Source: Bryobacteraceae bacterium (GTDB lineage Bacteria > Acidobacteriota > Terriglobia > Bryobacterales > Bryobacteraceae). Taken from it: DNA of 64,000 nucleotides. Position 1 is the first letter of the stretch. Every line of letters begins with the position of its first letter. The stretch spans positions 236,832 to 300,831 of the forward strand of contig DATASJ010000106.1 in NCBI GenBank assembly GCA_036269275.1. Reading direction: 5' to 3'. A program made the position numbers and the translations under genes. The notes beneath the pieces are model-generated. The model saw only the letters and a list, made by a program, of their open reading frames with translations, did no database searches and was not told where the DNA came from. Of this stretch, positions 2,507 to 25,900 are shown piece after piece.

Positions 2507-2511
2507 TGGAT

Positions 2512-5500: not shown

Positions 5501-5595
5501 GCTTTAGCGAGGGGGCGTGGCAGTCGCAGGCGGGGGAACGCTTTGAGACGACGAAGCGGCGGGAGGAGGTGCGGAACTCTCGGCAGAACCGGCAT
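2512..5595 (-). CDS. Sensor histidine kinase with a large periplasmic beta-propeller-repeat / Y_Y_Y sensor, a TM segment, HisKA_3 and HATPase_c
   Basis: 1027 aa. It has many repeats of the type G.LW.GT..GL.R. (two-component regulator propeller), a TM segment (WFFPLLALALALAGVAAY), the H-box ELHDTLLQGLSG and a C-terminal ATPase region (DDGAGF, GLVGMRERA). ATG 5595 is the only canonical start upstream of the signal-like segment. Confidence 0.88.
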   Translation of the reverse strand: MPVLPRVPHLLPPLRRLKAFPRLRLPRPLAKAPQACAHLAALLVLTAIAALPVRALDPAKTLTQYAHRIWGQEEGLFQPTIYSILQTSDGFLWLGTQDSLIRFDGMRFREFDGPDAAAFHHSLIHALLEDRAGNLWVGSLGGGVAKIAPGGAITRYTTAQGLPGDSVFCLASDSRGAVWICTNQGLARFQNGRFRVFTTADGLPSNGIRATCEASDGTRWVAGLDFGLSRWNGSRFATYSDSRVSPRDNITALDCARDGSVWIGSASGLTQLRESGSRSFTAQDGLPDNAVSALAESPDGSIWIGANDGISRYRSGEFSTYRTRDGLSHSLVLSLFIDREGSLWAGTKDGLDQFTDGKVTPYTTEDGMPSNDAGPVLEDSANRLWIGTLASGLAFFDGRRFHRLTTRDGLASNTVLSLEVAPQGDLWVGTSKGLNRLRDAKVIGSYTQREGLSGPEVRAIFVDVQGTLWVGTNQGLNRFAGGHFVRADMDGVTRGKQVIALSGAHAARLFVSTDPPDLYYIAAGSSGHYPLDVIHSVDCYYLDHVRHAAWMGTLGSGLLRWENGKLTHVRVKDGLYDNRIYGILRDDQANFWMASSKGIFRVSQKELEQFADGKIRNITSIPFSTGQLRFECQSGVQPAACRTRDGRLWFSTTSGLVVVDPNHLVSDTVRPPVGVTAILVNGQRAAAAGKLELKPFENNVEIRYAGLSFVSPEKVTFRYLLEGYDKTWTDAGARREAFFTNLPPGTFRFEVIARNADGIWSSRPAVLPFTIEPRLYQRAWFFPLLALALALAGVAAYRVRIRQLNQRFNLVLAERTRIARELHDTLLQGLSGVTMQLQALWTRLPVSKEKQFLGEVIKDAGRCSTEARQSLWGLRRAGSTAIPFCGKLEALAREAVDRTPVALEFSGDPVSLDSMPETEYQLLRIAQEAISNSLTHSSAQTLQVSLRLQEGVLQLCVQDDGAGFATSSPGGFGHYGLVGMRERAAEIGARLSIVSSPSTGTCVLVEFPLSSRTSVSNADTPFEHQIS

Positions 5596-12030: not shown

Positions 12031-12627
12031 ATGCCTCCCGAGCGTGTGTCCGCGGTTCCGAGCGGCCGCGAAAAGACCACTTGGCGCACGCTCCCGAACC
12101 TGCTGACGGCGTTGCGAATCGCGCTGATCGCCCCGTTCGGTTGGTTGTGCCTACGCGGACACGATATGCCGGCGCTGAGCGTGTTTCTGATCGCCGGAGT
12201 GACAGACACGGTGGACGGAACGCTGGCGCGGCGCTTCAATCAAAGGTCGAAGTTCGGGCGGCTGGCCGATCCGTTAGCGGATAAATTGCTAACCACGGTA
12301 GCGTACTTAGTGCTTTGCCTGCGAGCAGGTTTTTCGGCTCTCCCGGTTTGGGTCACGATCGCCGTTATCGCGCGCGATGTACTAATTTTGATTGGCTCGC
12401 TTGTGGTGTACGCCCGGACTCGCAGCACGGCGTTCAAACCCGACGTTATCGGGAAGGCGAACACGTTTATCGAGATTGGGGTGGTGGTTGTGTTCCTGGT
12501 GTCCAGCAGGTTGGTTTTTCTCGAGCGGTTCCTGACGGCGGTGTATCTACTTTTGCTCGTGTCGTTGATTGTCTCTACCATCGATTACCTGGTACAAGGC
12601 TTGCGCATGCTGCGTACGCGAAACTGA
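12031..12627 (+). CDS. CDP-alcohol phosphatidyltransferase family protein (PgsA-like)
   Basis: The signature D(x)2DG(x)2AR(x)8G(x)3D(x)3D is present as DTVDGTLARRFNQRSKFGRLADPLADKL. Several TM segments are present. Confidence 0.85.
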   Translation: MPPERVSAVPSGREKTTWRTLPNLLTALRIALIAPFGWLCLRGHDMPALSVFLIAGVTDTVDGTLARRFNQRSKFGRLADPLADKLLTTVAYLVLCLRAGFSALPVWVTIAVIARDVLILIGSLVVYARTRSTAFKPDVIGKANTFIEIGVVVVFLVSSRLVFLERFLTAVYLLLLVSLIVSTIDYLVQGLRMLRTRN

Positions 12628-12659
12628 AACCTTTGCGGGGCGAGCGGGTCTCGGTTGAC

Positions 12660-13544
12660 ATGCGGCTGTTGTGGACGGTGGCGCCGGGTGTTTTCGTTAT
12701 CGCCTTCGCGTTCACCGAAATTTTTCAAGATCTCTTTCATCCGACGCATAGCGGGTCACTGAGCGATTGGATCGGGCGGACGGTGTTTCGGACGTTCCGG
12801 CGCTGGCCGCGCTCACTTTCGAGCGCCGGGCCTTTGACCATCGTCCTGGTGATCTTCTGCTGGGCGATGTTGCAGGCAGTCGGGTTCGCGCTCATCTATT
12901 CGGCCGGATTCCCAGACAGCTTCCGGCTGATGAACCCGGAGGATACGCACACCGGTCACACCTTCTGGACCATGCTGTATTTTTCTCTTCAGGTGATGAC
13001 GACGCTCGGTTTAGGAGACGTCATTCCCAAAGCGAACTGGCTGCGGATGATTGTCACGCTGCAAGCCTTGATCGGGTTCGCGCTGCTCACGGCGAGCGTA
13101 TCCTCGATTGTGCTGATCTATCCGGCACTGGGGCGCATGAGGTTGCTGGCACGGCGCACGACGATTCTCAGCAAGGCTGCAAGGGAGATGGGTATCGAAA
13201 TCGTTTCCGGCGAGGTGGCGAGTTTGCTCAGCGATCTGGCGACCGCGGTCATTCAGACGCGAGTCGATTTTATTCACTTCCCGATCATTTATTACTTCCA
13301 CTCGGATCATCGAAGGTCTTCGCTCGCATCGGCGCTTCCGAAATTGATCCAGTTCGCCGAGGCGGGTTCGAATGCAGACGCGCCGGATCGGGTGCGGCTT
13401 TATGCGTCTGCGCTGCGCGGCGCGCTGGAGGATTTAGCCGCGGTTCTGGATGAGCGGTTTCTTCACACTCGCTCGCATGACCCGGCGGTGGTGTTTCGCG
13501 CCTATGGGAAAGACCACGTAATCCGGGAAATGCAGCCGGACTGA
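12660..13544 (+). CDS. Ion-channel family protein (2-TM pore) with a non-canonical filter TTLGLGD and a soluble C-terminal domain
   Basis: ATG 12660 (MRLLWTVAPGVF) lies downstream of the pgsA-like stop. The pore helix and filter read FWTMLYFSLQVMTTLGLGDV and are flanked by TM helices. The ORF-track start at 12315 is a frame extension over the previous gene. Confidence 0.75.
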   Translation: MRLLWTVAPGVFVIAFAFTEIFQDLFHPTHSGSLSDWIGRTVFRTFRRWPRSLSSAGPLTIVLVIFCWAMLQAVGFALIYSAGFPDSFRLMNPEDTHTGHTFWTMLYFSLQVMTTLGLGDVIPKANWLRMIVTLQALIGFALLTASVSSIVLIYPALGRMRLLARRTTILSKAAREMGIEIVSGEVASLLSDLATAVIQTRVDFIHFPIIYYFHSDHRRSSLASALPKLIQFAEAGSNADAPDRVRLYASALRGALEDLAAVLDERFLHTRSHDPAVVFRAYGKDHVIREMQPD

Positions 13545-13612: not shown

Positions 13613-15391
13613 GTGTTCGCTATGCACCGCAAAACACGCAGCCCTGTGGCTGTTTTGGCCTTACTAGTTGTCGCGCCTGCCTGGGCGCAGATCCAGAACC
13701 AGCCCGATGACGGCCAATGGGTGATGCCGGCGAAGAATTACGCCAGCACGCGGTTCAGCACGCTGGACCAGATCAACACGGGCAATGTTCAAAGTTTAAA
13801 GCTGGCCTGGACGTTTTCGACGGGCCTGACGCACGGGCACGAGGCAGCGCCGCTGATCGTGAACAACACGATGTATATCGTCACGCCATATCCGAACTAT
13901 CTCTATGCGCTGGATCTCACGAAACCCGGCGCACCGATGAAATGGGTCTATCAACCCAATCCCGAGCCGTCTTCGCAGGGGACGGCGTGCTGCGATGTGG
14001 TGAATCGCGGAGCCGCTTACTGGAACGGCAAAATCTACTACAACACGCTGGATGTCCATACTGTGGCGGTTGACGCAGCCACCGGCAAAGAGGTCTGGAA
14101 CACGAAGCTGGGCGACATTAATCTTGGCGAGTCGATGACCATGGCGCCGATTGTCGCGAAGGGGAAAGTGATTGACGGGAACAGCGGCGGCGAATTCGGC
14201 GTCCGGGGATGGCTGGCCGGGCTGGATGCCGATACGGGGAAGCTCGCTTGGCGAGCTTACGCGACCGGACCGGATTCCGAAGTGCTGATTGGGCCGAATT
14301 TCAAGCCGTTTTACCAGGATGAGCGCGGCAAGGATTTGGGCATGAAGACGTGGCCCGGCGACGCATGGAAGATCGGCGGCGGCACCGGCTGGACCTGGAT
14401 TTCCTACGATCCGGACCTGGACCTGATCTATTACGGCACTTCGAATCCGGGGCCGTGGAACCCGGAACAGAGGCCTGGAGACAACAAGTGGACGTCTTCG
14501 TTGTTTGCGCGCCGGCCGGAGACGGGGGAAGCGATATGGGCCTATCAGCTTAATCCGCACGACGTGCACGATTACGATGGCGTGAACGAAAATATACTGC
14601 TGGATCTGAATATCAAGGGACAGAATCGCAAAGTGCTGGCGCATCCGGATCGCAATGCGCGCATGTACATCATCGATCGAGCGAGCGGCGAGGTGCTGTC
14701 GGCGGAAACGTTCGCTTACGCGAACACGACCTTCGGCGTGGATCTGAAGACGGGCAAGCTGAAGATCAATCCCGATAAGGTTTCGGGATTCACCACGATT
14801 CGCGATGCCTGTCCGGCGCCTCCGGGCGGCAAGGATTGGCAGCCCTCGGCCTATTCGCCCAAGACGGGGCTGATTTATATTCCGCACAACAACCTCTGCT
14901 ATGAGAACCAGGGCCTGCAAGCGAATTACATTGCCGGCACGCCGTATGTGGGCATGAATGTGCGGATGTATGCGGGTCCGGGCGGCAATCGCGGCGAGTT
15001 TTCGGCGTGGGACCCGGCGCAGGCGAAAACCGTGTGGGCGGTAAAGGAAATGTTCCCGGCCTGGAGCGGCGCCGTGGCCACGGCGGGCGACGTTGTTTTC
15101 TACGGGACGATGGACGGCTGGTTCAAAGCGCTCGATGACCGCAGCGGGAAGCTGCTTTGGCAGTTCAAGGTGGGATCGGGCATCATCTCGCAGCCGGTGA
15201 CGTACAAAGGTCCGGATGGCAAACAATATGTGGCGGTGCTGTCGGGCGTAGGCGGATGGGCGGGCGGCATCGTCGCGGGCGGTTTGAACCCGGTGGACGG
15301 TACCGCGGCTTTGGGCTTCGTGAACGCGATGTCGGATCTGGGCAAGTACACGACGAAAGGTGGCATGCTGTATGTTTTTTCGCTGCCTTAG
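13613..15391 (+). CDS. xoxF: PQQ-dependent methanol/ethanol dehydrogenase, XoxF-like (lanthanide-type signature)
   Basis: The candidate starts are GTG 13613 and ATG 13622. It has a signal peptide (AVLALLVVAPAWA), the vicinal Cys pair GTACCD (13988-13993), W-docking propeller repeats, and HDVHDYDGVNE with Asp at the position that is Ala in Ca-dependent MxaF (DYD at 14570-14578). Confidence 0.88.
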   Translation: MFAMHRKTRSPVAVLALLVVAPAWAQIQNQPDDGQWVMPAKNYASTRFSTLDQINTGNVQSLKLAWTFSTGLTHGHEAAPLIVNNTMYIVTPYPNYLYALDLTKPGAPMKWVYQPNPEPSSQGTACCDVVNRGAAYWNGKIYYNTLDVHTVAVDAATGKEVWNTKLGDINLGESMTMAPIVAKGKVIDGNSGGEFGVRGWLAGLDADTGKLAWRAYATGPDSEVLIGPNFKPFYQDERGKDLGMKTWPGDAWKIGGGTGWTWISYDPDLDLIYYGTSNPGPWNPEQRPGDNKWTSSLFARRPETGEAIWAYQLNPHDVHDYDGVNENILLDLNIKGQNRKVLAHPDRNARMYIIDRASGEVLSAETFAYANTTFGVDLKTGKLKINPDKVSGFTTIRDACPAPPGGKDWQPSAYSPKTGLIYIPHNNLCYENQGLQANYIAGTPYVGMNVRMYAGPGGNRGEFSAWDPAQAKTVWAVKEMFPAWSGAVATAGDVVFYGTMDGWFKALDDRSGKLLWQFKVGSGIISQPVTYKGPDGKQYVAVLSGVGGWAGGIVAGGLNPVDGTAALGFVNAMSDLGKYTTKGGMLYVFSLP

Positions 15392-16148
15392 CCTTACGTT
15401 GCTGGCGACCCTGGTGCTGGGCGCGGAAAACGCACTGCGCGTTTGCGCCGACCCGAACAACCTGCCGTTCTCGAATCAGCGGCAGGAAGGCCTCGAAAAC
15501 AAGCTCGCCGAATTAGTAGCGGAGCAGATGGGAGCGAAACTCGAGTACACGTGGTGGTCCGAGCGCGGCTCGCTGGTCAAGAACACATTGAATGCCGGAC
15601 GCTGCGACGTTCTTATGGGTGTTCCCACTTCGCTCGACGAGGTGACGGCGACCGAGCCGTATTATCGATCGACGTACGTGTTTGTCTCGCGGCGCGATCG
15701 CGCTCTGAGAATCACGTCGCTTGCCGATCCGCGCTTAAGCGACTTGAAAATCGGCATTCACGTGGTGGGCGAGGACTTGGCGCCTCCCGCGTATGCGCTG
15801 GCACGGCGCGGAGTCACCCGCAACGTTGTGGGATTCAGCTTGTTCGGCGCCTATGGCGAGGAAAATCCCCCACGCAAGCTTGTGGACGCGGTCGAGCATG
15901 GGGATGTCGATGTCGCGATCGTGTGGGGTCCGTTTGCCGGCTTCTTCGCGCAGGGCGCGAACTCGCCGCTTGAGATAACACCAGTCGCTCCTCCCCTGTA
16001 TTTCGGCGTTCCCTTTGCATACGATATTTCGATGGGTGTGCGAAAGGGGAATGACGCGCTGAGAGACGAATTGAACGGCGTGCTGAGACACGCATCCGCC
16101 GCGGTCGGGGCGCTGTTGATCGAATACAATGTGCCCGAGGTGCACTGA
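15372..16148 (+). CDS. xoxJ: Quinoprotein-dehydrogenase-associated periplasmic solute-binding-like protein (MoxJ/XoxJ family)
   Basis: LRVCADPNNLPFSNQRQEGLENKLAELVAEQMG..RCDVLMGVP is typical of the MoxJ-type family. ATG 15372 gives the signal peptide MFFRCLSLTLLATLVLGA and overlaps the xoxF stop by 20 nt. The ORF-track start is 15360. Confidence 0.8.
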   Translation: MFFRCLSLTLLATLVLGAENALRVCADPNNLPFSNQRQEGLENKLAELVAEQMGAKLEYTWWSERGSLVKNTLNAGRCDVLMGVPTSLDEVTATEPYYRSTYVFVSRRDRALRITSLADPRLSDLKIGIHVVGEDLAPPAYALARRGVTRNVVGFSLFGAYGEENPPRKLVDAVEHGDVDVAIVWGPFAGFFAQGANSPLEITPVAPPLYFGVPFAYDISMGVRKGNDALRDELNGVLRHASAAVGALLIEYNVPEVH

Positions 16149-16683
16149 GGTGAGCGCGGGTAGCATCTTGACACTGCTGTGCGGCGCCGCTTTTCTGCTG
16201 GCTTCATGCCAAGTTGAGAAGCACGACATTCGACCCTCGCCAACTCGCCTAGCTATCTATGGGAACGCAGCGCGGGAGAGCACGTTGCGGCCCGGCGGCC
16301 CGGTGAATCGCGAACAGGTAGTTACGAATCCGTATAATCACAGCGCTTACGACGTTTCGGAAGGCCAACGGCTTTTCGGCTGGTACAACTGCTCGGGTTG
16401 TCACGCCAACGGCGGCGGCGGAATCGGCCCGCCGCTGATCAAGCAGAACTGGATCTACGGAGGGGAGCCGGCAAATCTGTTCGACACCATCGTGAAGGGC
16501 AGGCCCAACGGGATGCCATCGTGGGGCGGCCGGATTCCCGAATATCAGATCTGGCAGATTGTTGCGTACGTGCGCTCCCTAAACGGTGAGCAGCCCGCAT
16601 CGGCGACAGCCGGGCGCGCCGATACGATCGAGACGAATTCTCAAAACCTGGCGAACCGCACGACCGGGGTCACGCCAAAATGA
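16129..16683 (+). CDS. Mono-heme c-type cytochrome, probable lipoprotein
   Basis: The heme site CSGCH sits in YNCSGCHANGGGGIGPPL and the distal Met region is GMPSWGG. GTG 16150 gives a signal with the lipobox LLASC and lies 1 nt after the xoxJ TGA. Whether it is XoxG-like or oxidase-associated cannot be decided from the sequence alone. Confidence 0.85.
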   Translation: MCPRCTEVSAGSILTLLCGAAFLLASCQVEKHDIRPSPTRLAIYGNAARESTLRPGGPVNREQVVTNPYNHSAYDVSEGQRLFGWYNCSGCHANGGGGIGPPLIKQNWIYGGEPANLFDTIVKGRPNGMPSWGGRIPEYQIWQIVAYVRSLNGEQPASATAGRADTIETNSQNLANRTTGVTPK

Positions 16684-17711
16684 GACGGGCATCGGGGATT
16701 CTCTGCGGCAGCGGCGTACTCGCGCTGACGGCGTGCGCGGGGCATCAGCAATCGGCGGTAGACCCGGCGGGGCCGCAGGCCGGGCACATCGCGAACCTGT
16801 GGTGGTTTTTCTTCGCGGTGCTCGCGGCAATTTTTCTCGCGGTGATGGCATTTGCACTATGGACGCTGACGCGGCGGCATCGCGGCATTGAACAGGAGCC
16901 GCTCGAAGGGAAGCACAAGCCGTCGGAGGCGACAGAATCGCGATTGACTCGAGTTGTTGCCGGATTGACGATTGCCACGGTCCTGATTCTTTTCGTGCTG
17001 CTGGTTTCGAGTATCACTACGGGCAAGAGTATTTCCGAGCTTCGAGACAAGCAGCACGGCTTGATCATCGAGGTGACCGGCAATCAATGGTGGTGGCAGT
17101 TTCGCTACATGAACGACGATTCGAACGAGATCCTGATCACGGCGAACGAGATTCACATTCCCGTGGGACGGCCCGTGATGATCCGGGGCATGTCGCAGGA
17201 TGTGATTCACAGCTTCTGGGCGCCGAACCTCAACGGCAAGCGCGATTTGATTCCGTCACGCATCACGGAAGAATGGATTCAGGCGGATCATGCGGGCGCG
17301 TACCGGGGACAGTGCGCGGAATTTTGCGGATTGCAGCACGCGCACATGGTGTTTTGGGTGGTCGCCGAAGCACCGGACAAATTCAAGCAGTGGTTCGATG
17401 CGCAATTGCAGCCTGCCGCTGCGCCGGGGGACGCCGACACGCTGCGCGGGCAGCAGGTGTTTCTGAATAACGCCTGCATCTTCTGCCACACCATTCGCGG
17501 CACGCCGGCGGCGGCGCAGAACGGACCCGACTTGACGCATTTCGGGAGCCGCAGAAGTATTGCGGCCGGCACATTGCCGAATACGCCGGGCAATTTGGGC
17601 GGCTGGATCGTCGATCCGCAGAGCATCAAGCCGGGGAACCATATGGCAACGATCGCGCTGAACTCGAGTGATCTGCAGCCCTTGATCGACTATCTCGAGA
17701 GCCTGAAATGA
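16680..17711 (+). CDS. coxB: Cytochrome c oxidase subunit II with a fused C-terminal cytochrome c domain (caa3-type)
   Basis: It has the lipobox LALTAC and two TM segments. The CuA site is HSFWAPNLNGKRD and CAEFCGLQHAHM. The C-terminal heme motif is CIFCH. It shares an ATGA overlap with the upstream gene. Confidence 0.93.
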   Translation: MRRASGILCGSGVLALTACAGHQQSAVDPAGPQAGHIANLWWFFFAVLAAIFLAVMAFALWTLTRRHRGIEQEPLEGKHKPSEATESRLTRVVAGLTIATVLILFVLLVSSITTGKSISELRDKQHGLIIEVTGNQWWWQFRYMNDDSNEILITANEIHIPVGRPVMIRGMSQDVIHSFWAPNLNGKRDLIPSRITEEWIQADHAGAYRGQCAEFCGLQHAHMVFWVVAEAPDKFKQWFDAQLQPAAAPGDADTLRGQQVFLNNACIFCHTIRGTPAAAQNGPDLTHFGSRRSIAAGTLPNTPGNLGGWIVDPQSIKPGNHMATIALNSSDLQPLIDYLESLK

Positions 17712-19612
17712 ACAGCAAGGCGCACATAGTCCCTAAAAACGAGGAAGAAGCGCACGAGTTGCGGCTGCTCGAGGAATCCTGGCGGCACCCGCGCGGCATC
17801 TTTGGATGGCTCAGCTACACGACGCACCAGGCGATCGGCATGCGCTATATCGTCACGGCATTTCTGTTCCTGCTGGTGGGCGGGATAGAAGCGCTGCTCA
17901 TGCGGATACAGCTCGCGAAGCCGAACAACACGTTTCTGAGTCCGGACCGCTACAACGAAATCTTTACCACTCACGGCACCACCATGATGTTCCTGTTCGC
18001 GGTGCCGATGATGGAGGGCATGGCGATTTACCTTGTGCCGCTGATGCTCGGCACCAGGAACGTCGCATTTCCGCGCCTGAACGCCTTCGGTTATTGGATG
18101 TACTTGGGCGGCTGCATCTTCCTGTACTGGGGTGTGTTCACGAATGCGGCGCCGGACGCCGGCTGGTTTGCGTATCCGCCGCTCGCCGGGCCGCAATTCG
18201 ATCCGGGAAAACGCGTCGATTTCTGGGCGCAGATGATCACCTTCACCGAAGTGTCGGCCATGTGCGTTGCGGCGGAGCTGATCGCGACCATTTTCAAGAT
18301 GCGCGCGCCCGGCATGACGCTGAACCGCATTCCGCTCTATTGCTGGTCGATGCTGGTGCAGTCTTTCATGGTGATTTTTGCGATGCCCGCGATCATGGTC
18401 GCAAGCTCGTTTCTGCTATCCGACCGCACAATCGGCACGCATTACGTGAATCCGGCGGAGGGCGGCGATCCGCTGCTGTATCAACACGTCTTCTGGTTCT
18501 TCGGGCACCCGGAGGTGTACATCATATTTATTCCAGCGCTCGGATTCGTGTCGCAAATCGTCAGCGCGCATTCGCGGCGCGAGGTGTTTGGATATCCCGC
18601 GATGGTGCTCTCGGTGGTGGCGACCGGGTTCATCGGATTCGGCCTGTGGGTGCACCACATGTTCGCAACCGGCCTGCCGCAGATCGGCGAAGCGTACTTC
18701 ACCGCGTCGAGCATGATGATTGCGATCGCGAGCGGCGTGCAGATTTTCTGCTGGATCGCGACGTTGTGGACCGGAAGGCTGCGGATGACAGCGGCCCTGC
18801 ATTTTGTTTTTGGCTTCGTGGCGATATTCGTGCTGGGCGGGCTTTCGGGAGTGATGCTCGCCTCCGTGCCGCTGGATTTGCAGGTGCACGATACCTATTT
18901 CGTGGTGGCGCACTTTCATTACGTGCTGATCGGCGGCGCGCTGTTCCCGCTCTTTGGCGCGTTCCATCACTGGTTCCCGAAGATGAGCGGCCGGCTATTG
19001 AACGAGACGATTGGGAAACTCACCTTTTGGGTGCTGTTCATCGGTTTCAACCTGACATTCTTTCCGATGCACATTCTTGGTCTGAAAGGCATGACCCGGC
19101 GCATCTATACGTATCCGCCCGAGATGGGTTGGGGTCCGGCGAACCATCTGGCGACCATCGGCGCAGGCATCATCGCGCTCGGCGGCCTCGTGTTCATCGT
19201 GAATGTGCTGATCAGCCGCAAGCGCGGCCAGGTGGCGGGCGACGACCCCTGGGATGCGGACACGCTCGAATGGGCGGCTGCATCGCCACCGGCTAATTAC
19301 AACTTCGAATATCTTCCCGCCGCGACGAGCCGCTCGCCGCTATGGGTTCCACGCGAGGAGCGCGCGGTTGTGACCGGATTGCGCAATGACCGCCGCGAAG
19401 TGCTAGTCACCACGCTGATGGATGCCGAGCCGCATCATCGCTATGTGCTACCGAAGGCCAGCATCTGGCCGCTGTTGACCGCGATCGCCGTCACGGTGGG
19501 CTTCGCGGGATCGGTCTTCAACGGCTGGTACATTTTTTGGGGCGCGGGGATTACGGGTATTGGCTTGATCGGGTGGTTCTGGCCGCGGCGGCCGCTGGAG
19601 CTGAAGCCGTGA
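17708..19612 (+). CDS. ctaD: Cytochrome c oxidase subunit I (634 aa, with a two-helix C-terminal extension)
   Basis: Heme-copper oxidase motifs are present: FFGHPEVYI, WVHHMF and HFHYVL. It shares an ATGA overlap with coxB. Confidence 0.95.
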   Translation: MNSKAHIVPKNEEEAHELRLLEESWRHPRGIFGWLSYTTHQAIGMRYIVTAFLFLLVGGIEALLMRIQLAKPNNTFLSPDRYNEIFTTHGTTMMFLFAVPMMEGMAIYLVPLMLGTRNVAFPRLNAFGYWMYLGGCIFLYWGVFTNAAPDAGWFAYPPLAGPQFDPGKRVDFWAQMITFTEVSAMCVAAELIATIFKMRAPGMTLNRIPLYCWSMLVQSFMVIFAMPAIMVASSFLLSDRTIGTHYVNPAEGGDPLLYQHVFWFFGHPEVYIIFIPALGFVSQIVSAHSRREVFGYPAMVLSVVATGFIGFGLWVHHMFATGLPQIGEAYFTASSMMIAIASGVQIFCWIATLWTGRLRMTAALHFVFGFVAIFVLGGLSGVMLASVPLDLQVHDTYFVVAHFHYVLIGGALFPLFGAFHHWFPKMSGRLLNETIGKLTFWVLFIGFNLTFFPMHILGLKGMTRRIYTYPPEMGWGPANHLATIGAGIIALGGLVFIVNVLISRKRGQVAGDDPWDADTLEWAAASPPANYNFEYLPAATSRSPLWVPREERAVVTGLRNDRREVLVTTLMDAEPHHRYVLPKASIWPLLTAIAVTVGFAGSVFNGWYIFWGAGITGIGLIGWFWPRRPLELKP

Positions 19613-20223
19613 CAGCAGCTAAAACGCTCGACGTATCGCAGCTTCCGCCTTTCGATATCTCCAGCCAGGCGCCGCTCTGGTGGGGACAAGTGTGTCTCGC
19701 CATCATCGAAGGCACGATGTTCTCCATCTTGGTGGCGTGCTATTTCTATGCCCGTTTGCGCATGGACGTGTGGCCGCCGCCTGGCGATCAGCTGCCGCAT
19801 CTTCTGATTCCGACGCTTGGGCTCATCCCGCTGCTTCTGAGCGTGCCGCCGGCCTACTTCGCGAGTCAGGCAGCCAAGAAAAACGATCGGGTCGGCATGA
19901 TTCTCCACATGGCGCTGAACCTGCTCTTCGGACTCATCTTCTTCGTCATGCGCTTATTCGAGTGGCATTCGTTGAATTTCAACTGGAAGGCGGATGCGCA
20001 GGGTTCATATGTGTGGGCGTTTCTGGGGCTGCACACGTTCGACTACGTAGGCGACTTGGGATTTACGCTGGTGTTGCTGGTCCTGGTGCTGACCGGCCGG
20101 TATGGCGAGAGGGAGCGGCTGGGAGTGCACGTGGATACCGTGGTCTGGTATTTCCTGGTGGCGATCTGGATTCCGATCTACGTGGTCATCTATTGGGGGC
20201 CGCGCATCGTAGGGACGCCGTGA
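19609..20223 (+). CDS. ctaE: Cytochrome c oxidase subunit III
   Basis: GTG 19609 overlaps the ctaD TGA (GTGA). The protein is polytopic, with LWWGQVCLAIIEGTMF and HTFDYVGD. Its size and position fit subunit III. Confidence 0.8.
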   Translation: MTAAKTLDVSQLPPFDISSQAPLWWGQVCLAIIEGTMFSILVACYFYARLRMDVWPPPGDQLPHLLIPTLGLIPLLLSVPPAYFASQAAKKNDRVGMILHMALNLLFGLIFFVMRLFEWHSLNFNWKADAQGSYVWAFLGLHTFDYVGDLGFTLVLLVLVLTGRYGERERLGVHVDTVVWYFLVAIWIPIYVVIYWGPRIVGTP

Positions 20224-20570
20224 TGAGCCGAACACGCAACCTGGCGCTGTGGACCGGAGTTCTGGCCGGGCCGTTTGTCTGGCTGCTCAGCTTTCAGGCG
20301 AACTTTACGCTTGCGCCGTGGGCATGCGAATTCAATACGAAGATTGCGCTGTTCCTGGTTACCTTGGTTGCGCTCGTCCTGGTGGCGGGTTCGGGTTGGC
20401 TTGCCTGGCGCGAATGGACGGAATTGGGTAAAGCATTGCCGGATAACGCGGCGGGCGCGCTAGGCCGTAGCCGCATCATGGCGCTGGGCGGCGTGCTGCT
20501 AAGCGCGATGTTCTTCGTGGTGATCCTGGCGCAAGCCATGCCGGAGCTGATACTAGGAGCCTGCGAGTGA
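20223..20570 (+). CDS. Small 3-TM membrane protein embedded in the oxidase operon (function unknown)
   Basis: 115 aa (MSRTRNLALWTGVLAGPFVWLLSF...). It has a TGATG overlap with ctaE and a GTGA overlap with ctaG. Confidence 0.6.
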   Translation: MSRTRNLALWTGVLAGPFVWLLSFQANFTLAPWACEFNTKIALFLVTLVALVLVAGSGWLAWREWTELGKALPDNAAGALGRSRIMALGGVLLSAMFFVVILAQAMPELILGACE

Positions 20571-21376
20571 AATCCCTCTGGACCGCCTGGGAGTTCGATC
20601 CGGGCGTGGTGATTCCACTCGCGATCTCGGCGGTTTTGTACGCGCGCGGATCGCGGCGCGAACGCACGCTCACTTTGCGCCAGAAGACTTGTTTCTGGAC
20701 GGGATGGGCGATGCTTGCTCTCGCGCTGGTCTCGCCGCTGCACCCGCTGGGCGAAGAATTGTTTTCCGCGCACATGATCCAGCACGAGATTTTGATGCTG
20801 GCGGCAGCTCCGCTGCTGGTGCTCTCGCGCCCGCTGGTGACATTTCTTTGGGGCATGCCGATTGCATGGCGGCGCGCAACCGGCGCTTGGGCAAAGGCAG
20901 CGTATGTTCGAAAATCGTGGACTTTCTTGACAGATCCGTTGACGGCCTGGTCAATTCATGCCGCGGCTATCTGGCTGTGGCACGTTCCGTTCCTCTTTCA
21001 ATTGACGCTCAAGAGCGAGCTTGCGCACACGGCCCAGCACTTGAGTTTCTTCCTTTCGGCGCTGCTGTTCTGGTGGGCGCTGTTCTACGCGCACGGGCGG
21101 CTGGCGTATGGGGCCGCCGTGTTCTACGTCTTCACTACGGCCGTGCACACCAGCATACTGGGCGCATTGCTTACGTTTTCTCCGCATCTTTGGTATCCGC
21201 TTTACAGCACGACCACGCAGGCATGGGGCTTAACGCCGTTGCAGGATCAGCAACTGGGCGGGCTGGTGATGTGGGTGCCCGCCGGGCTGGTCTATCTGGC
21301 GGCCGGCCTGTGGCTGTTTGCCGCGTGGCTGAAAGAAAGCGATGCGCTGTTGGGAAGGACGCGCGGTGCGAAGTAG
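20567..21376 (+). CDS. ctaG: Cytochrome c oxidase assembly factor, Caa3_CtaG family
   Basis: 269 aa and polytopic, with WEFDPGVVIPLAISAVLY, SAHMIQHEILMLAAAPLLVL and LQDQQLGGLVMW, which is typical of the Bacillus-type CtaG family. Confidence 0.8.
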   Translation: MKSLWTAWEFDPGVVIPLAISAVLYARGSRRERTLTLRQKTCFWTGWAMLALALVSPLHPLGEELFSAHMIQHEILMLAAAPLLVLSRPLVTFLWGMPIAWRRATGAWAKAAYVRKSWTFLTDPLTAWSIHAAAIWLWHVPFLFQLTLKSELAHTAQHLSFFLSALLFWWALFYAHGRLAYGAAVFYVFTTAVHTSILGALLTFSPHLWYPLYSTTTQAWGLTPLQDQQLGGLVMWVPAGLVYLAAGLWLFAAWLKESDALLGRTRGAK

Positions 21377-21746
21377 CATCTTGTTGGCAGCGATGCTGGC
21401 TGCCACGGCTCTGTTCGTCTGCTCGTGCGGCAACAGCGCCGAGCACACTGCGGAGGTAACCACCGGAGGCGACGCGCGCCGGGGAGCCGCAGCCATCAGC
21501 CGCTACGGATGCGGCGCGTGCCACGTCATTCCGGGTGTTTCGGGCGCGCAAGGTTTAGCCGGCCCACCGCTTTCCGGGATCGCGAGCCGGACCTATATTG
21601 CAGGCGTATTGCAGAACACGCCGGAGAACATGATGCGCTGGATCGAGAATCCTCCGGCCGTCGATGAACATACCGTGATGCCGAACCTGCACGTCACCGC
21701 GAAAGATGCAGCCGATATCGCGGGATATCTGTACACGTTGAAGTAG
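21366..21746 (+). CDS. Mono-heme c-type cytochrome
   Basis: The heme motif is CGACH and the Met ligand region is TVMPN. GTG 21366 gives the signal VRSSILLAAMLAATALFVCSC and overlaps the ctaG stop. The ORF-track start is 21342. Confidence 0.8.
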   Translation: MRSSILLAAMLAATALFVCSCGNSAEHTAEVTTGGDARRGAAAISRYGCGACHVIPGVSGAQGLAGPPLSGIASRTYIAGVLQNTPENMMRWIENPPAVDEHTVMPNLHVTAKDAADIAGYLYTLK

Positions 21747-21796: not shown

Positions 21797-22192
21797 ATGA
21801 TTACACTCGCGGACGCACGGCGAATCATCGCCGCGGCTGAACAGAAAGCGCAAGAGATCGGCCAGCCGATGAACATTGCGGTTGTGGATCAAGGTGGAAA
21901 CCTGATTGCGCACGTGCGCATGGACAATGCCTGGATCGGCAGCGTCGATATTTCGATCAAGAAGGCCTGGACCGCGCGCGCCTTCGACATTTCGACGAAA
22001 GATCTGGCCGAGAACAGTCAATCCGGCGATCAATTCTTCGGCATTCACGTTTCGAACGACTGCCGCGTGATGATATTCGCGGGCGGCATTCCGCTGAAAA
22101 AGGGCGGACAGGTGGTAGGCGGTATCGGCGTCAGCGGCGGGGTCGGCAAACAAGACCAGGCAGTTGCGGAGGCGGGCGCGGAGGCGTTCTGA
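21797..22192 (+). CDS. GlcG/HbpS-like heme-binding protein (DUF336)
   Basis: MITLADARRIIAAAEQKAQEIGQPMNIAVVDQGGNLIAHVRMDNAWIGSVDISIKKAWTA and GGIPL..GGQVVGGIGVSGG are typical of DUF336. Confidence 0.85.
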   Translation: MITLADARRIIAAAEQKAQEIGQPMNIAVVDQGGNLIAHVRMDNAWIGSVDISIKKAWTARAFDISTKDLAENSQSGDQFFGIHVSNDCRVMIFAGGIPLKKGGQVVGGIGVSGGVGKQDQAVAEAGAEAF

Positions 22193-22207: not shown

Positions 22208-22888
22208 TCAAATAATTCCGTGCTCGATGGCGTAGCGCGTCAGCTCGGCTGTGGTATGCAAGCCGAGCTGATCCATCAGCTTGGCTTTGTGAAACTCCAC
22301 CGTCTTGACCGAGATTTGCAGGATATCGGCGATCTCCTTGCCGGATTTCCCTTCGCCCACCAATTGCAGGACTTCGCGCTGGCGCGGCGTGAGCTGGCCG
22401 GCAAACCACTCGAGCGGATTGCCGCCGCCGTTCAGAAGACCGGCGATTTCTTTCGGGACCACCAAGCGCGTGACATAAAACCGGCCGGCCAATACTTCGC
22501 GCAGCGCGGTCAACAATTCCGTGGGAGCGGACTGTTTGACGACGTAGCCTCTGGCCCCGGCCTGCAATGCCGCCTGCACATACTCTTTTCCCGTTTGTTG
22601 CGTGAGTACGACGATCCTCGCTTTGGGAGCCGCTTTGCAGATCTGGCGGGTCGCCTCAATGCCGTTCAGCAGCGGCATGGATATGTCGATGAGAATTGCA
22701 TCGGGCCGGAGTTCGGCGGCGAGATCTACCAGTTCGCGCCCGTTGCTTGCCACACCGGCGATTTCAAAATCCTTTTCCAACAGCTTGGAAAGCCCGGCCA
22801 CCACCAGGCTGTGATCGTCGGCGAGCAAGATCCTAGGTTTTGCGGCCGATGCCCCCGAGACTTTTGGGGGCTCTGGAGTATTCATCAC
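22208..22888 (-). CDS. Two-component response regulator, NarL/LuxR family
   Basis: The REC domain shows ILLADDH and DAILIDISMPLLNG. The HTH region reads LTPRQREVLQLVGEGKSGKEIADILQISVKTVEFHKAKLM. Confidence 0.92.
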   Translation of the reverse strand: MMNTPEPPKVSGASAAKPRILLADDHSLVVAGLSKLLEKDFEIAGVASNGRELVDLAAELRPDAILIDISMPLLNGIEATRQICKAAPKARIVVLTQQTGKEYVQAALQAGARGYVVKQSAPTELLTALREVLAGRFYVTRLVVPKEIAGLLNGGGNPLEWFAGQLTPRQREVLQLVGEGKSGKEIADILQISVKTVEFHKAKLMDQLGLHTTAELTRYAIEHGII

Positions 22889-22943
22889 GTGAGCTAAAGT
22901 TTATCTCAATTTAGATTAAAACAAGAATTGCCGGGGAGTGCTC

Positions 22944-25900
22944 TTACCGCTCTTCCGTGTCGAGGGGCACCTCTACCGCAACGGTCGTGCCCTTCCCCAG
23001 GGCGGAGTGGATCGAAAGTTTTCCATTCACCAGGTTCGCGCGTTCCGCCATGCTGATCAAGCCGAGCCCCTGGCGCGTGGATTCCATATCGAAACCTTCC
23101 CCGAAATCCGCAATTTCAAGCCGAAGCTTCTGGTCCAGTGCTTCGAGCGTAATCTTCACGTGCGTGCGTCCGGCGTGCTTGGCCACGTTGCGCAGCGCTT
23201 CCTGCGTAATGCGATAGAGAGCGGCGGCGGCATTCTGGGGGATGTGTTCCGGAACGTTCTGGCGCTGCAGCGTGACCATCATGTTCTCGCGCTCGCTAAA
23301 TTCGTCGCCCAGCGCCTTGAGCGCATAGGATAGCCCCAGGTCATCGAGCATCGAGGGGTGCAGCCCGTGCGAAATTTTGCGCACATCATCGGCGAGCGCG
23401 CCTGTCCGGGCGGCCACCGCATCAATCATCTTGTGAGTGTCGGAATCGCGCGGCACGGAAGCGCTCAAGTGCTGCAAGTCCATTCCCAGGACGGCGAGCC
23501 TTTGGCTGATATCGTCATGCAGCTCGCGGGCGACCCGCCGCCGCTCTTCCTCCTGGGCCTGGAACAAACTGGCCGAGAGAGCCCGCAGTTCCTCTTGCGT
23601 TCGATCCAAAGCCTGCACGGTAGAGCGCACCGTGCCTTCGAGCTGCTCCTTCTCGCGCTGGATGATTTTTTCGGCGCGTTTCCGCCCAGTGATGTTCTCG
23701 ACGGTGAGTAAAATGACCTGCTCGCCCTCGATCTGAACCACCCTTCCTTGCACTTGGAGCACCCGGTATTCCGGCGTTCCAATCTCATGGTCCAATTCAA
23801 AGCCCGGGGCGCTGGGTCCCTGGTCGCGAAGCCGCTCCAGCATGGGCCGGATTGGCCCCATGTTCCAAAGCAACTGCACCAGGTCAGGAAATGAATCGGA
23901 AACCAACTCTTCCGCCGTCCGCCCGGCGAGTTCGCGGAACGCGCTGTTGGTGTCCCGAATGCGGAGATCCATGTTCAGAACCACCAGCGGGATATTGACA
24001 CTGTCTACGACCGCGAGGGCGAAATCGTGGGCGTCCTTCAACTGTTGCTGGCTTTTCCGGAGTTGGTCAATGTCCACCAGCACCAGCACCAACCCCTCGA
24101 TCTTGTTGTCGCTGGTCCGGTAAGGCCGCACGCGCAGTAAATGCCAACGGCCATGGCGATCCTGGACCTCCAACTCGTGGGTTGCCAAGGTATCCAGCAC
24201 GTCCTGCAGAATGGGCTCGAGATTTTCCACGCTCAGGTTGAGGCGAATATCCGTGATGGGCCGGCCCAGATCCGCTGCCCGGATGTTCATCAGCTTCTGC
24301 GAAGGCGGTGTGAAATGCCGGATCTGCAGCTCGTTATTCAGCATCAACACGGGAATATTGACGTTTGTCAGAAGGTTGTTCAAATCGTTGGTGGCCTGCG
24401 TCAGCGTGGCGTTACGAAGCTGCAGCTCTTCATTTGTGGTCTGCAGCTCTTCGTTCGAGCTCTGCAGCTCCTCCTTGGTCGTCTCCAGCTCTTCGTTCGT
24501 GCTTTGCAGCTCTTCGTTGGCGGACTGAATCTCCTCATTCGCCGAAATCAGCTCCTGATTACGGGCGTCGCGCTCTTCGATCAGCGATTGCAGATAGACT
24601 TTGGTAGTGCTCAGATCGTGCCTTAGCTGCACGATCGATTCCGCGATCAATCCCTGTTCCCGTTGCGACGCGGCGGCTGGCCATGGGAGCGTCCGGGCAA
24701 GTATTTCCGGCTGGTCGCTCTTCGAAACGGGCGCGAAGAGAATCACGTAGCAGCGTGGCCGGGCAGGCACACTCGGAACCGGCAAGACCTCTAGATTCGT
24801 ACGCTCGGTTTCCGTTCCGTTCCGTAGCTCGAGATCTTCCACCCGCACCGGCATATCCCGTTCCACTGCATAGCGAACCGCGTCGCGCACTCGCGAAGCG
24901 ATATTTTCTTTCAACATATGCAGCAACTGAAAACTGGCCGGGCCCGGCGTCACATCCACGAACGGGCTTGTAGTTCCCCGGAACTGGAGCACCTCCAACG
25001 ACTCATTAATAACCAAGCCGGGCGGCCCGTAACGGGCAAGCACCAGACGGTCCACCGTGCGCTGCAACTCCAGGTCTGTCCACCTCTCCAGGTGAGCTGG
25101 GCCTGTTGCAGTCAACTCGGACCGGCCCGCCGCTTCCAGAGAAGGCGGCAGGCGATGGGGCAGATCGAAGTGCACGGGAGTGGTGGCGGCCGTTTTGGCG
25201 TAGAACTTGGCCTTGCGATCTACCAGCGTGAACAGTCCCGTAAATTCCCGGATCGTCTCGGTGGCGCCAAGCAGCAGATATCCATTCGGGCGGAGCGCAT
25301 AATTGAAGGTTTGAATGAGCCGCCGTTGCAGAGTATGGCCGAAATAGATCAAAACGTTGCGGCAACTGACAAGGTCCAGTTTCGAAAACGGCGGATCGTT
25401 GCACAGGTTCTGACAGGCGAAGATGCACAGGTCGCGAACCCGCTTCGAGACCTGGTATCCGCTATCCACCCGCGTGAAAAACCGGCGCAGGCGGTCCGCG
25501 GAAACGTCCGTGACGATGCTTTCCGTATACGTGCCGAGCCGCGCTTTCTCAATGGAGGCGCTGCTGGCGTCGGTACCGAAGATCTGAATGGCCGGCTCGA
25601 ACGGATGCCCCGCGACGAACTCCAGAAGACAGATTGCGAACGAATAGGCTTCTTCGCCGGATGAGCAGCCCGGCACCCAGATTCGCACCTGCTGATCGGG
25701 AGACCGCTCGGCGAAGATGGTGGGCAGGATCTCGCTCTTGAAGGCCTGGAACACATCGGGCTCGCGAAAGAAGTGAGTGACGTTGATGAGCGCATCCTCA
25801 TGCAGTTGGCGAACTTCTTCGGGATGCCCCTGAAGATATTCAACGTATTCCTGCATGGTGTCGATTTTCTTCACGATCAATCGGCGAGCTACGCGCCGCC

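Follow-up and report, generated by a model that had tools for sequence, protein, structure and literature searches.

A XoxF3-type dehydrogenase gene cluster with linked caa3-type oxidase genes in a Bryobacteraceae bacterium

XoxF3 systems have been described in Acidobacteria, Gemmatimonadetes and Verrucomicrobia by Voutsinos et al. (2024, PMC10875860), with genes for XoxF3, XoxJ, a class I cytochrome c (named 'XoxG' there), CoxII, CoxI, CoxIII, a hypothetical protein of about 110 amino acids (aa), CtaG and CytC. That paper credits a 2014 mini-review by Keltjens et al. for cox and ctaG genes in xoxF3 operons, and in a 2024 review (PMC11845868) the gene-map figure has labels for cox and CtaG and includes Methylocella silvestris BL2 in its list of species. 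PMC10875860 states that no experimental study of XoxF3 systems has been made. The XoxF3 of M. silvestris is barely expressed and shows no lanthanum response (PMC9291206), and XoxF3 was among the XoxF proteins detected in 13C-methanol soil SIP metaproteomes (PMC6908837).

We analyzed a 64-kb stretch of DNA from a soil acidobacterium of the Bryobacteraceae (the window), in which an earlier note had singled out nine same-strand genes at 13613-21746 as its best candidate for an undescribed system. This claim of novelty had to be given up: the gene set, including the protein of about 110 aa, is already reported for acidobacterial XoxF3 systems (PMC10875860), and the window cluster is a member of this previously described system. 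The synteny is therefore an arrangement that has been described there but not functionally characterized.

Layout and conservation of the cluster

All nine open reading frames were present on the plus strand at the coordinates given by the earlier note, and codon reading bore out every junction. The xoxF stop codon (TAG, 15389-15391) overlaps an in-frame xoxJ start at ATG 15372 or GTG 15360, and the xoxJ TGA (16146-16148) is followed by an in-frame cytochrome c GTG at 16150, with ATG 16129 as the alternative start. Overlapping codons then join cytochrome c to coxB (ATGA, 16680-16683), coxB to coxA (ATGA, 17708-17711), coxA to coxC (GTGA, 19609-19612), coxC to the gene of a small membrane protein (TGATG, 20221-20225) and the latter to ctaG (GTGA, 20567-20570); ctaG ends at 21376, and the second cytochrome c gene starts at GTG 21366 or ATG 21342. 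Measured at the corresponding eight junctions of as many as 71 homologous loci, the gaps had medians of, in order, -20, -4, -4, -4, -4, -1, +18 and -15 nt (six junctions with medians of -20 to -1 nt). The tight packing is kept across homologous loci and is not due to chance. Between 12000 and 24000, promoter-like sites (3 versus 3.7 expected from shuffled sequence) and terminator-like sites (12 versus 12.9) showed no excess, and the GC content is uniform across the cluster (0.58-0.62). The operon-like layout that had been claimed is thus supported by the abutting codons and by the conserved gaps, and the nine genes most likely form a single, co-transcribed unit.

The proposed tie between oxidase and dehydrogenase, for which a count of genomes with xoxF beside cox genes had been suggested, holds in both directions and in many lineages. 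Where genome loci extended at least 6.5 kb downstream of xoxF, the genes for cytochrome c, coxB and coxA followed on the same strand in 56 of 59, in Bryobacteraceae, Acidobacteriaceae, Pyrinomonadaceae, Blastocatellia, Thermoanaerobaculia, Gemmatimonadaceae, Ramlibacter and others. Where loci are shorter, as in Methylomirabilota and other additional lineages, the recoverable genes stand in unchanged order, and a matching order is found on plasmids of the cultured hosts Mesorhizobium and Sinorhizobium (S. medicae WSM419). In the reverse direction, 34 metagenome loci were picked by CoxA alone (59-88% identity); xoxF lies upstream in 33 of them, and the remaining locus is rearranged and still linked. 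Only three Phenylobacterium loci among the 59 lack the oxidase genes, and these dehydrogenase relatives were counted against the reading of a dedicated respiratory branch.

Upstream of xoxF lies a plus-strand gene for an ion-channel protein (12315..13544; Pfam Ion_trans_2) whose true start is probably near 12660. Among 80 genome loci, 11 have a homologue as the immediate upstream neighbor of xoxF, facing either way, as have 6 among 80 metagenome loci; the gene thus recurs at this place, and its operon membership is not established. Exactly 50 nt past 21746 begins a plus-strand HbpS-like/GlcG (DUF336) gene (21797..22192; Pfam HbpS-like, 150 bits), present in 22 of the 53 loci with enough flank (81-93% identity) and a frequent tail gene in Terriglobia; a 'heme-binding protein' gene also adjoins the cluster on Methylocella and Mesorhizobium plasmids. 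Convergent to these, on the minus strand, Pfam identified a LuxR-type response regulator (22208-22888) and a CheB-CheR-PAS-HisKA_3 hybrid kinase (22944-26720), which are candidate local regulators; homologues of this pair occur near other clusters only sporadically and are not conserved neighbors. The 64-kb window contains no pqq, heme a synthesis (ctaA/ctaB) or formaldehyde-handling genes.

Gene products and conserved residues

Pfam and NCBIfam confirmed each gene identity proposed earlier, the two small cytochromes also scoring above the Pfam cut-offs, and only the small membrane protein is without a family. The xoxF product (13613..15391, plus strand) is a periplasmic PQQ-dependent dehydrogenase of the methanol/ethanol family and lanthanide type, matching TIGR03075 (NCBIfam) with 640 bits (cut-off, 480); it belongs to the XoxF3-like clade. 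The top solved structure is XoxF2 (4MAE, 660 bits), with which its catalytic, PQQ and lanthanide motifs agree: the CC disulfide, SGGEFG, GTSNPG and DYD (catalytic Asp and lanthanide Asp) are all retained, DYD being found in 74 of 78 relatives. Because a 100% identical database copy (P0001) has 589 aa, the annotated start is probably ATG 13622 rather than GTG 13613. The following gene (15360..16148, plus strand; start likely ATG 15372) encodes a XoxJ-like (MoxJ-like) periplasmic binding protein that scored 287 bits against TIGR03871 (quinoprotein dehydrogenase-associated SBP; cut-off, 212).

The XoxG position is taken by a gene for a monoheme class I cytochrome c (16129..16683, plus strand; Pfam Cytochrome_CBB3 and Cytochrom_C) with the lipoprotein signal LLASC, the heme motif CSGCH and the Met of GMPSW; all 68 homologues have CxxCH. 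CcoP domains were its best PDB matches and the cytochrome cL match was weak; it is a CcoP-domain-like class I cytochrome. Membership in the cytochrome cL/XoxG family was considered and rejected, the NCBIfam MoxG model giving 39 bits (cut-off, 148). The second monoheme cytochrome c (21342..21746, plus strand; Pfam Cytochrom_C), assigned to the oxidase module, is probably also a lipoprotein and retains CxxCH in 35 of 35 homologues; a cytochrome c follows the small protein at the equivalent position in an Acidimicrobiia operon (L171).

The oxidase genes, all on the plus strand, start with coxB (16680..17711; COX2 and Cytochrom_C), whose subunit II has a CuA site and, fused at its C terminus, a cytochrome c domain, the caa3 architecture (TIGR02866, 164 bits; cut-off, 148). 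All 70 homologues have the CuA motif CxExCxxxHxxM, and 67 of the 70 have CxxCH. The coxA product (17708..19612; TIGR02891, 706 bits; cut-off, 671) is a subunit I of the A-family heme-copper oxidases, lengthened at its C terminus by about 100 aa. The six His ligands are all in place, as are E242, Y244 and R438/439 (bovine numbering, as below), and K319 is replaced by Gln, D91 by Asn, N80 by Ile and N163 by Glu. Within a clade of 147 CoxA proteins, Gln takes the place of the K-channel lysine in 142 and Asn that of the D-channel entry Asp in 106, the N80 position is hydrophobic in nearly all, and E242, Y244 and the full ligand set are invariant; two clade-specific glutamates lie in helix IV, at positions 154 and 163. 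An oxidase with Gln for the canonical K-channel lysine and a remodeled D-channel would be new relative to the published description. CoxA is without the canonical K-channel lysine and the D-channel entry residues; neither its activity nor its coupling to proton translocation can be taken for granted. The coxC gene (19609..20223) encodes a subunit III with five predicted hydrophobic segments (Pfam COX3, 36 bits; cut-off, 24; CtaE/CyoC matches weak), and ctaG (20567..21376) a caa3-type oxidase assembly factor (Pfam Caa3_CtaG, 196 bits; cut-off, 28).

The gene between coxC and ctaG encodes a 115-aa membrane protein (20223..20570, plus strand) with no sequence match in Pfam, NCBIfam or PDB. Its AlphaFold2 model has three helices (pLDDT 92) and gave no significant match in a fold search; two cysteines, C35 and C114, are invariant. 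Homologues in xoxF clusters lie between COX1/3 and CtaG, all three divergent homologues examined belong to clusters of the XoxF-oxidase type, and further homologues occur in actinobacterial bc-caa3 operons (hhalign, 97%). The protein is part of the oxidase module, where it is either subunit-IV-like or a factor for assembly. This membership would also be new relative to published work; Acidimicrobiia pair the module with a bc complex.

Proposed electron path and alternative readings

Going beyond what was observed, namely the genes, their ligand motifs, the close coupling and the linkage in both directions, we consider it probable that the cluster, most likely as one transcription unit, encodes a self-contained periplasm-to-oxygen respiratory branch. 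Periplasmic XoxF3, with PQQ and presumably a lanthanide, would oxidize an alcohol, presumably methanol, and pass electrons to the membrane-anchored lipoprotein cytochrome c (16129-16683) as first acceptor. From there they may reach the cytochrome c domain of CoxB and, via CuA and the low-spin heme, the high-spin heme/CuB site of CoxA, where O2 would be reduced. XoxJ would serve as a helper of the dehydrogenase, and CoxC, the 115-aa protein, CtaG and the second cytochrome c would complete the oxidase module. Points counted against this path were the very low, lanthanum-unresponsive expression of M. silvestris XoxF3, the non-cL cytochrome, the CoxA channel losses and the absent pqq, ctaA/ctaB and formaldehyde genes.

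It is possible, although not our favored reading, that XoxF3 is not primarily a methanol dehydrogenase and that another alcohol, an aldehyde or formaldehyde feeds the oxidase in non-methylotrophic hosts. The carriers include Bryobacteraceae, rhizobia and Gemmatimonadaceae, which to our knowledge are not classical methylotrophs, and the window holds no genes for C1 assimilation or formaldehyde oxidation. Moreover, the 592-aa XoxF is only 54% identical to characterized XoxF2 and 50% to XoxF5-type enzymes, and no XoxF3 enzyme has been characterized (PMC10875860). However, PDB scores favor methanol dehydrogenases (520-660 bits) over ethanol dehydrogenases (306-350 bits), and the detection of XoxF3 proteins in 13C-methanol soil SIP also speaks for methanol. 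We regard it as unlikely that the linked oxidase, rather than conserving energy, is a poorly coupled or non-pumping sink for electron or oxygen removal or detoxification, as could be proposed because its proton channels are non-canonical. Mutating these positions cripples or uncouples model A-type oxidases, as known from mutants of R. sphaeroides and E. coli bo3. On the other hand, the strictly retained E242, Y244 and ligands argue against such a sink, the helix IV glutamates could rebuild a proton path, B- and C-family oxidases function without the K-channel lysine (PMC11214002), and the signature is shared by Acidimicrobiia oxidases paired with bc complexes, for which energy conservation is expected.

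A stable alcohol:O2 oxidoreductase supercomplex of XoxF3, the lipoprotein cytochrome c and the caa3 oxidase in fixed stoichiometry seems somewhat doubtful. Both small cytochromes are apparent lipoproteins and CoxB has its own cytochrome c domain, and therefore every carrier would be membrane-tethered. Translational coupling is conserved, Acidimicrobiia place the same oxidase subfamily and a bc complex in one operon, and actinobacterial bcc-aa3 enzymes were solved as supercomplexes (PDB 6ADQ, 6HWH, 8HCR). Nevertheless, gene overlap is no proof of fixed stoichiometry or physical association. XoxF is, moreover, a soluble periplasmic enzyme in all characterized systems. That a general-purpose oxidase came to lie beside xoxF by chance in this lineage is highly improbable. 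In its favor, the 64-kb window shows no second terminal oxidase, but the two-way linkage across several phyla and plasmids, and a locus (L024) with a second, different oxidase just downstream of its cluster, bring this reading close to refutation.

Comparison with known systems

The window cluster is one more instance of the XoxF3 systems (PMC10875860), with the same gene order and host phylum. The window copy ends in the HbpS-like gene and lacks the NRAMP and small-protein extension of some genomes (present in L085), and nothing essential differs; the proton-channel substitutions and the oxidase-module membership of the small protein are unreported there. The canonical xoxF-xoxG-xoxJ clusters of Methylorubrum extorquens (XoxF, 6OC5) and Methylacidiphilum fumariolicum (XoxF2, 4MAE) share the enzyme family, the lanthanide and PQQ residues, the XoxJ partner and a dedicated c-type cytochrome acceptor. 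In contrast, their enzymes are only 50-54% identical to the window XoxF, its cytochrome is not of the cL/XoxG family, and its operon encodes a full terminal oxidase, whereas a typical XoxF5 cluster (L173) continues into pqq genes.

At the level of concept, the rus operon of Acidithiobacillus ferrooxidans (cyc2-cyc1-orf-coxBACD-rus) is similar in that it encodes an oxidant for the substrate, c-type cytochromes of its own and an aa3-type oxidase, together a short substrate-to-O2 chain for which a supercomplex has been reported; unlike here, Fe(II) is oxidized at the outer membrane, rusticyanin takes part and the proteins on the input side are unrelated. Among solved structures, the nearest to CoxA is the aa3-600 quinol oxidase of Bacillus subtilis (6KOB/6KOC, 462 bits). 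The B. subtilis caa3 (ctaCDEF, ctaG) and aa3-600 enzymes have in common with the window cluster a subunit III of five helices, a small protein that follows it and Caa3_CtaG, and the former also the cytochrome c fused to subunit II; QoxB, however, retains the K-channel lysine and the D-channel Asp/Asn in the alignment, and the 115-aa protein has no detectable similarity to any solved chain. The bc-caa3 operons of Acidimicrobiia (L170, L171) show the same oxidase subfamily signature, with Gln in place of the K-channel lysine and Glu at position 163, and they encode COX2-cytochrome c, COX1(+3), a homologous two-cysteine small protein, a cytochrome c and Caa3_CtaG. There, too, the oxidase genes come immediately after those of the electron donor complex, but subunits I and III are fused, and the input, as in actinobacterial bcc-aa3 (6ADQ, 6HWH), is a quinol-oxidizing cytochrome c/Rieske/cytochrome b complex instead of a PQQ dehydrogenase.

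Gene order, dehydrogenase and cytochromes of the cluster

Nine open reading frames (ORFs) on the + strand occupy positions 13613-21746, and a tenth, encoding an HbpS-like/GlcG protein, follows at 21797-22192. The xoxF and xoxJ-like genes overlap by 20 nt (15372-15391), and the first cytochrome c gene has an in-frame GTG at 16150, just after the xoxJ TGA at 16146-16148. Farther along the + strand, ATGA joins the first cytochrome c gene to coxB (at 16680) and coxB to coxA (at 17708), GTGA joins coxA to coxC (at 19609), TGATG joins coxC to the gene for a 115-aa protein (at 20221), and GTGA joins the latter to ctaG (at 20567). The second cytochrome c gene overlaps ctaG by 11 nt, or by 35 nt if it starts at the ATG at 21342, and a spacer of 50 nt separates it from the HbpS-like gene on the same strand. 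Inspection of the window sequence recovered every junction that the earlier note had listed, each at its position. In homologous loci, the median intergene distances were -20, -4, -4, -4, -4, -1, +18, and -15 nt, and hence the tight coupling is itself conserved. A consensus scan for promoter- and terminator-like sites did not yield more sites than the shuffled sequence controls. The overlaps, the conserved spacing, and the lack of any promoter or terminator excess are consistent with a single transcript spanning all junctions. An Rfam scan of the whole window returned no matches. The cluster has an even GC content throughout, and recent horizontal transfer into the host genome was rejected, as the composition shows no break.

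The XoxF protein scored 640.4 bits against TIGR03075 (PQQ methanol/ethanol family; cut-off, 480), which places it within this family, and 209 bits against Pfam PQQ. Its closest solved relative was XoxF2 of Methylacidiphilum fumariolicum (4MAE; 660 bits), and methanol dehydrogenases outscored ethanol dehydrogenases by far in the PDB search. The segment HDVHDYDGVNE aligned with WDSWDYDGVNE of 4MAE, where DYD comprises the catalytic Asp and, two residues on, the lanthanide-coordinating Asp; ACCDVVNRG with its vicinal Cys-Cys, SGGEFGVRG, GTSNPG, and the metal-binding Glu and Asn were also retained. With DYD, the vicinal Cys-Cys, and the Glu/Asn metal ligands in place, XoxF is predicted to be of the lanthanide type, and DYD was found in 74 of 78 relatives. 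The host genome is a Bryobacteraceae MAG. The database copy of the protein (NCBI and JGI, 100% identical) starts three residues after the 592-aa form, and an exact-sequence look-up of the 592-aa form gave no match. In a neighbor-joining (NJ) tree, as well as by identity, the cox-linked dehydrogenases formed one clade, which shared 62-90% identity with the window XoxF and included homologues from Methylocella, Mesorhizobium, Sinorhizobium, and Ramlibacter. The reference sequences in the NJ tree, none of which carried an explicit XoxF3 label, were XoxF2 (4MAE; 54% identity) and XoxF5-type proteins (49-50%), and both fell outside this clade. The genera of the clade agree with those reported as xoxF3 carriers.

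The XoxJ-like protein reached 286.9 bits against TIGR03871 (quinoprotein-dehydrogenase-associated SBP; cut-off, 212) and remained below the cut-off of the MoxJ equivalog TIGR03870 (145 versus 258 bits). The first cytochrome c (16129-16683) is a monohaem class I protein with an LLASC lipobox, CSGCH, and GMPSW. It scored 39.2 bits against the cytochrome c(L) equivalog TIGR03872 (MoxG/XoxG), far from the cut-off of 147.8; its top PDB matches were CcoP domains, and cytochrome cL matched only at an E value of ~1e-6. Judged by these scores, the protein lies outside the XoxG family but may work like XoxG. The CxxCH motif was present in all 68 homologues of the first cytochrome c and in all 35 homologues of the second. 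Curated models likewise matched the second cytochrome c and the HbpS-like protein.

Linkage of the dehydrogenase and the oxidase

The association of the two parts of the cluster was examined in both directions. In the forward test, the ten cluster proteins were located by tblastn in the best 80 genome loci with dehydrogenase relatives. Downstream sequence of 6.5 kb or more was available in 59 loci; in 56 of these, the cytochrome c, coxB, and coxA genes came right after xoxF/xoxJ in the same orientation, and 46 had the full set through ctaG. These linked loci came from Bryobacteraceae, Acidobacteriaceae, Pyrinomonadaceae, Blastocatellia, Thermoanaerobaculia, Gemmatimonadaceae, a Ramlibacter, and a few oddly labelled MAGs, and shorter loci, including one from a Methylomirabilota MAG, showed the same order as far as their sequence goes. 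The oxidase was absent only from three Phenylobacterium loci. In the reverse test, metagenome contigs were picked by CoxA alone, and 34 of them extended at least 4.3 kb upstream; xoxF lay upstream on the same strand in 33, and the single exception (L120) is rearranged and still linked. Linkage in both directions therefore ties this oxidase clade specifically to the dehydrogenase clade, down to ~59% CoxA identity. Divergent homologues of the 115-aa protein (33-45% identity) lay in a PQQ/binding protein/cytochrome c/COX2/COX1/small protein/CtaG cluster in all three cases examined. MAGs labelled Limnocylindrales (82% XoxF identity), Bacillota, and Bacteroidota carried clusters highly identical to the acidobacterial ones (loci L044, L078, and L080), and this reflects either mis-binning or horizontal transfer.

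A tblastn search of plasmids revealed homologues with 62-68% identity in Mesorhizobium, Sinorhizobium, Azospirillum, and Methylocella, and XoxF5-annotated proteins at ~49%. Plasmid pB1-1-8 of Mesorhizobium sp. B1-1-8 (L168) matches the order exactly, with the genes for the small hypothetical protein, the assembly protein, and the trailing cytochrome c in place, and on pSMED03 of S. medicae WSM419 (L169), a plasmid typed as conjugative, the order agrees as far as the assembly protein gene. On plasmid p1 of Methylocella tundrae (L167), the xoxF-xoxJ-cytochrome c-ctaG genes stand beside a divergently oriented oxidase of another type. The location on rhizobial plasmids, together with the conjugative type, suggests that the module can move horizontally. 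Since cultured and genetically tractable rhizobia (Mesorhizobium and S. medicae WSM419) carry the cluster, its mechanism is directly testable.

The HbpS-like/GlcG protein is about the most conserved cluster protein in Terriglobia (81-93% identity; 22 of 53 loci), and on the plasmids from Methylocella and Mesorhizobium (L167:17275-17670 and L168:8090-8812), genes for a "heme-binding protein" flank the cluster. An Ion_trans_2 channel gene (12315-13544, + strand) ends 68 nt upstream of xoxF, and 17 of 160 related loci have a homologue, oriented either way, immediately upstream of xoxF. Genes for a LuxR-type response regulator and a 1258-aa CheB-CheR-PAS-HisKA_3 hybrid kinase (22208-26720, - strand) converge on the cluster; they were rejected as parts of the system because these neighbours are not generally conserved. 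Separate CheR-family and CheB genes are found a few kb upstream of the cluster on pSMED03 (L169:87-2932). In one metagenome locus (L085:8438-11093), an NRAMP transporter gene lies amid small hypothetical genes after ctaG; this extension is absent from the window and matches the NRAMP/small-gene extension reported for some XoxF3 systems (PMC10875860). Elsewhere in the window, two tandem genes for Uma2-family putative endonucleases (355-1504, - strand) are followed by those for a second LuxR-type regulator and a Reg_prop/Y_Y_Y HisKA_3 sensor kinase (1841-5595, - strand), and a gene for a DHOR-family di-haem oxidoreductase, a putative peroxidase, lies at 60504-62045 and has no visible connection to the cluster.

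Oxidase subunits, proton channels and the 115-aa protein

CoxB combines COX2 and C-terminal Cytochrom_C domains with a CuA motif and CIFCH, the fused cytochrome c that marks a caa3-type oxidase, and the CuA motif was present in 70 of 70 homologues. CoxA scored 706 bits against TIGR02891 (cut-off, 671) and keeps H61, H240, H290, H291, H376, H378, E242, and Y244, which are retained in 145-147 of 147 relatives; the arginine pair is also retained, and GHPEVY occurs in 62 of 63 homologues. Residue numbers follow the bovine sequence. On the basis of these residues, CoxA classifies as an A-family haem-copper oxidase subunit I of the A1 type, with the GHPEVY glutamate. CoxC matched subunit III weakly, yet over the threshold. 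CtaG scored 196.5 bits against Pfam PF09678 (Caa3_CtaG; cut-off, 27.7) and only 66 bits against the Bacillus equivalog TIGR02737, whose cut-off is 279.

The proton channels of CoxA depart from the canonical sets. The D-channel positions N80, D91, N98, and N163 (bovine numbering) hold I, N, N, and E, and the K-channel positions T316 and K319 hold S and Q. Relatives of CoxA lie in loci L001-L166. Across the 147 clade members, K319 is replaced by Gln in 142, D91, the D-channel entry Asp, by Asn in 106, and N163 by Glu in 105, and nearly all have a hydrophobic residue at the N80 position; two helix-IV glutamates, at bovine positions 154 and 163, are specific to the subfamily. An independent HMMER alignment with QoxB of B. 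subtilis (6KOC) showed the same channel substitutions, and many other representatives carried the canonical NDNN..TK at the same columns. An exhaustive search of representatives extended the signature to a wider subfamily with ~840-aa subunit I+III fusions (44-55% identity), which come from Acidimicrobiia and Chloroflexi. We found no description of A-family oxidases without the K-channel lysine, in a literature search that omitted most subscription and specialist journals and is weak evidence on this point. The unusual residues bear on proton uptake by A-family oxidases. A second oxidase type lies beside some xoxF3 clusters (L167:13590-17128 on Methylocella tundrae p1, and L024:19459-21321); its GHPWVY motif has Trp where the D-channel glutamate would be, the position of its K-channel lysine holds Ala or Gln, and the D-channel entry Asp and Asn are kept.

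The 115-aa protein (20223-20570), which has two invariant cysteines, gave no match when Pfam and NCBIfam were searched at default thresholds, none in Pfam when E values up to 10 were allowed, and none in a profile search of the PDB; a word-limited profile search collected at least 205 homologues. Its AlphaFold2 model is a confident three-helix bundle, for which Foldseek retrieved generic three-helix bundles only (best E value, 0.66), and the search lent no support to an identity as a CyoD/CtaF-type subunit IV. The small protein of XoxF3 systems is said to resemble "vesicle-mediated transport" (PMC10875860), and we infer that this resemblance is equally uninformative. In Acidimicrobiia, the oxidases with the channel signature come after a cytochrome c/Rieske/cytochrome b complex and are followed by a small protein, and in the actinobacterial locus L171 a cytochrome c and Caa3_CtaG accompany the small protein after the oxidase. 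The actinobacterial small protein (L171:10519-10896 and, in a second such locus, L170:10541-10846) is homologous to the 115-aa protein (hhalign, 97%; E value, 5e-11), and both cysteines are shared. This homology and the gene order in the bc-caa3 operons place the 115-aa protein, together with the second cytochrome c, in the oxidase module and not with the dehydrogenase. Different electron donors have been coupled to the module.

Proposed electron path and comparison with the XoxF3 system

The gene content and the two-way linkage argue for a dedicated branch from XoxF3 to O2, which is the best-supported reading. Periplasmic XoxF3 would reduce the lipoprotein cytochrome c, which would pass electrons to the cytochrome c domain of CoxB and from there to CuA, the haems, and O2. 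No pqq, ctaA/ctaB, or formaldehyde-handling genes were found within the window, and such functions are therefore encoded elsewhere. If true, such a hard-wired dehydrogenase-to-oxidase branch would account for how non-methylotrophic soil bacteria draw energy from trace methanol or other alcohols while bypassing the quinone pool. A joint reading of the channel residues and the linkage, which we consider rather unlikely, is that the XoxF3-linked oxidase represents a distinct A-family kind with rebuilt proton pathways, acting within a dedicated and possibly physically assembled alcohol:O2 oxidoreductase. The pathways may have been rebuilt by Gln at the position of the K-channel lysine, by the two new helix-IV glutamates, and by loss of the D-channel entry Asp/Asn pair. 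The oxidase would then be partnered by XoxF3 and two lipoprotein cytochromes c, its H+/e- stoichiometry would be unlike that of canonical aa3 oxidases, and the oxidase module would be a plug-in terminal unit, coupled in evolution to a PQQ dehydrogenase here and to a bc complex in Acidimicrobiia.

The earlier note had regarded the xoxF-cox cluster as an undescribed system. Its gene identities and its tie between dehydrogenase and oxidase, the latter through the two-way linkage, held up, whereas the undescribed status did not, since the same arrangement had already been published as the XoxF3 system by Voutsinos et al. (PMC10875860); a claim of a new system was thereby averted. The same paper, which describes XoxF3 systems as lacking experimental study, credits the 2014 mini-review of Keltjens et al. 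with having noted cox and ctaG genes in xoxF3 operons. A 2024 review in ISME J (PMC11845868) has a gene-organisation figure whose labels include cox and CtaG and whose species include M. silvestris BL2. In Methylocella silvestris, XoxF3 is barely expressed and shows no lanthanum response (PMC9291206). Our literature search, which omitted most subscription journals and is weak evidence in this respect, found no transcriptional, biochemical, or genetic work on the xoxF3-cox unit.

The new points are the unusual proton-channel residues of the attached oxidase and the membership of the small protein in the oxidase module. As for the arrangement itself, Voutsinos et al. (PMC10875860) define the XoxF3 system by XoxJ, a class I cytochrome c, CoxII, CoxI, CoxIII, a ~110-aa hypothetical protein, CtaG, and CytC, and they report a conserved protein of ~110-130 aa between CoxIII and CtaG in most such systems. 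The window has all of these components in the same order, and its cluster is another member of this published system, whose arrangement was already known.
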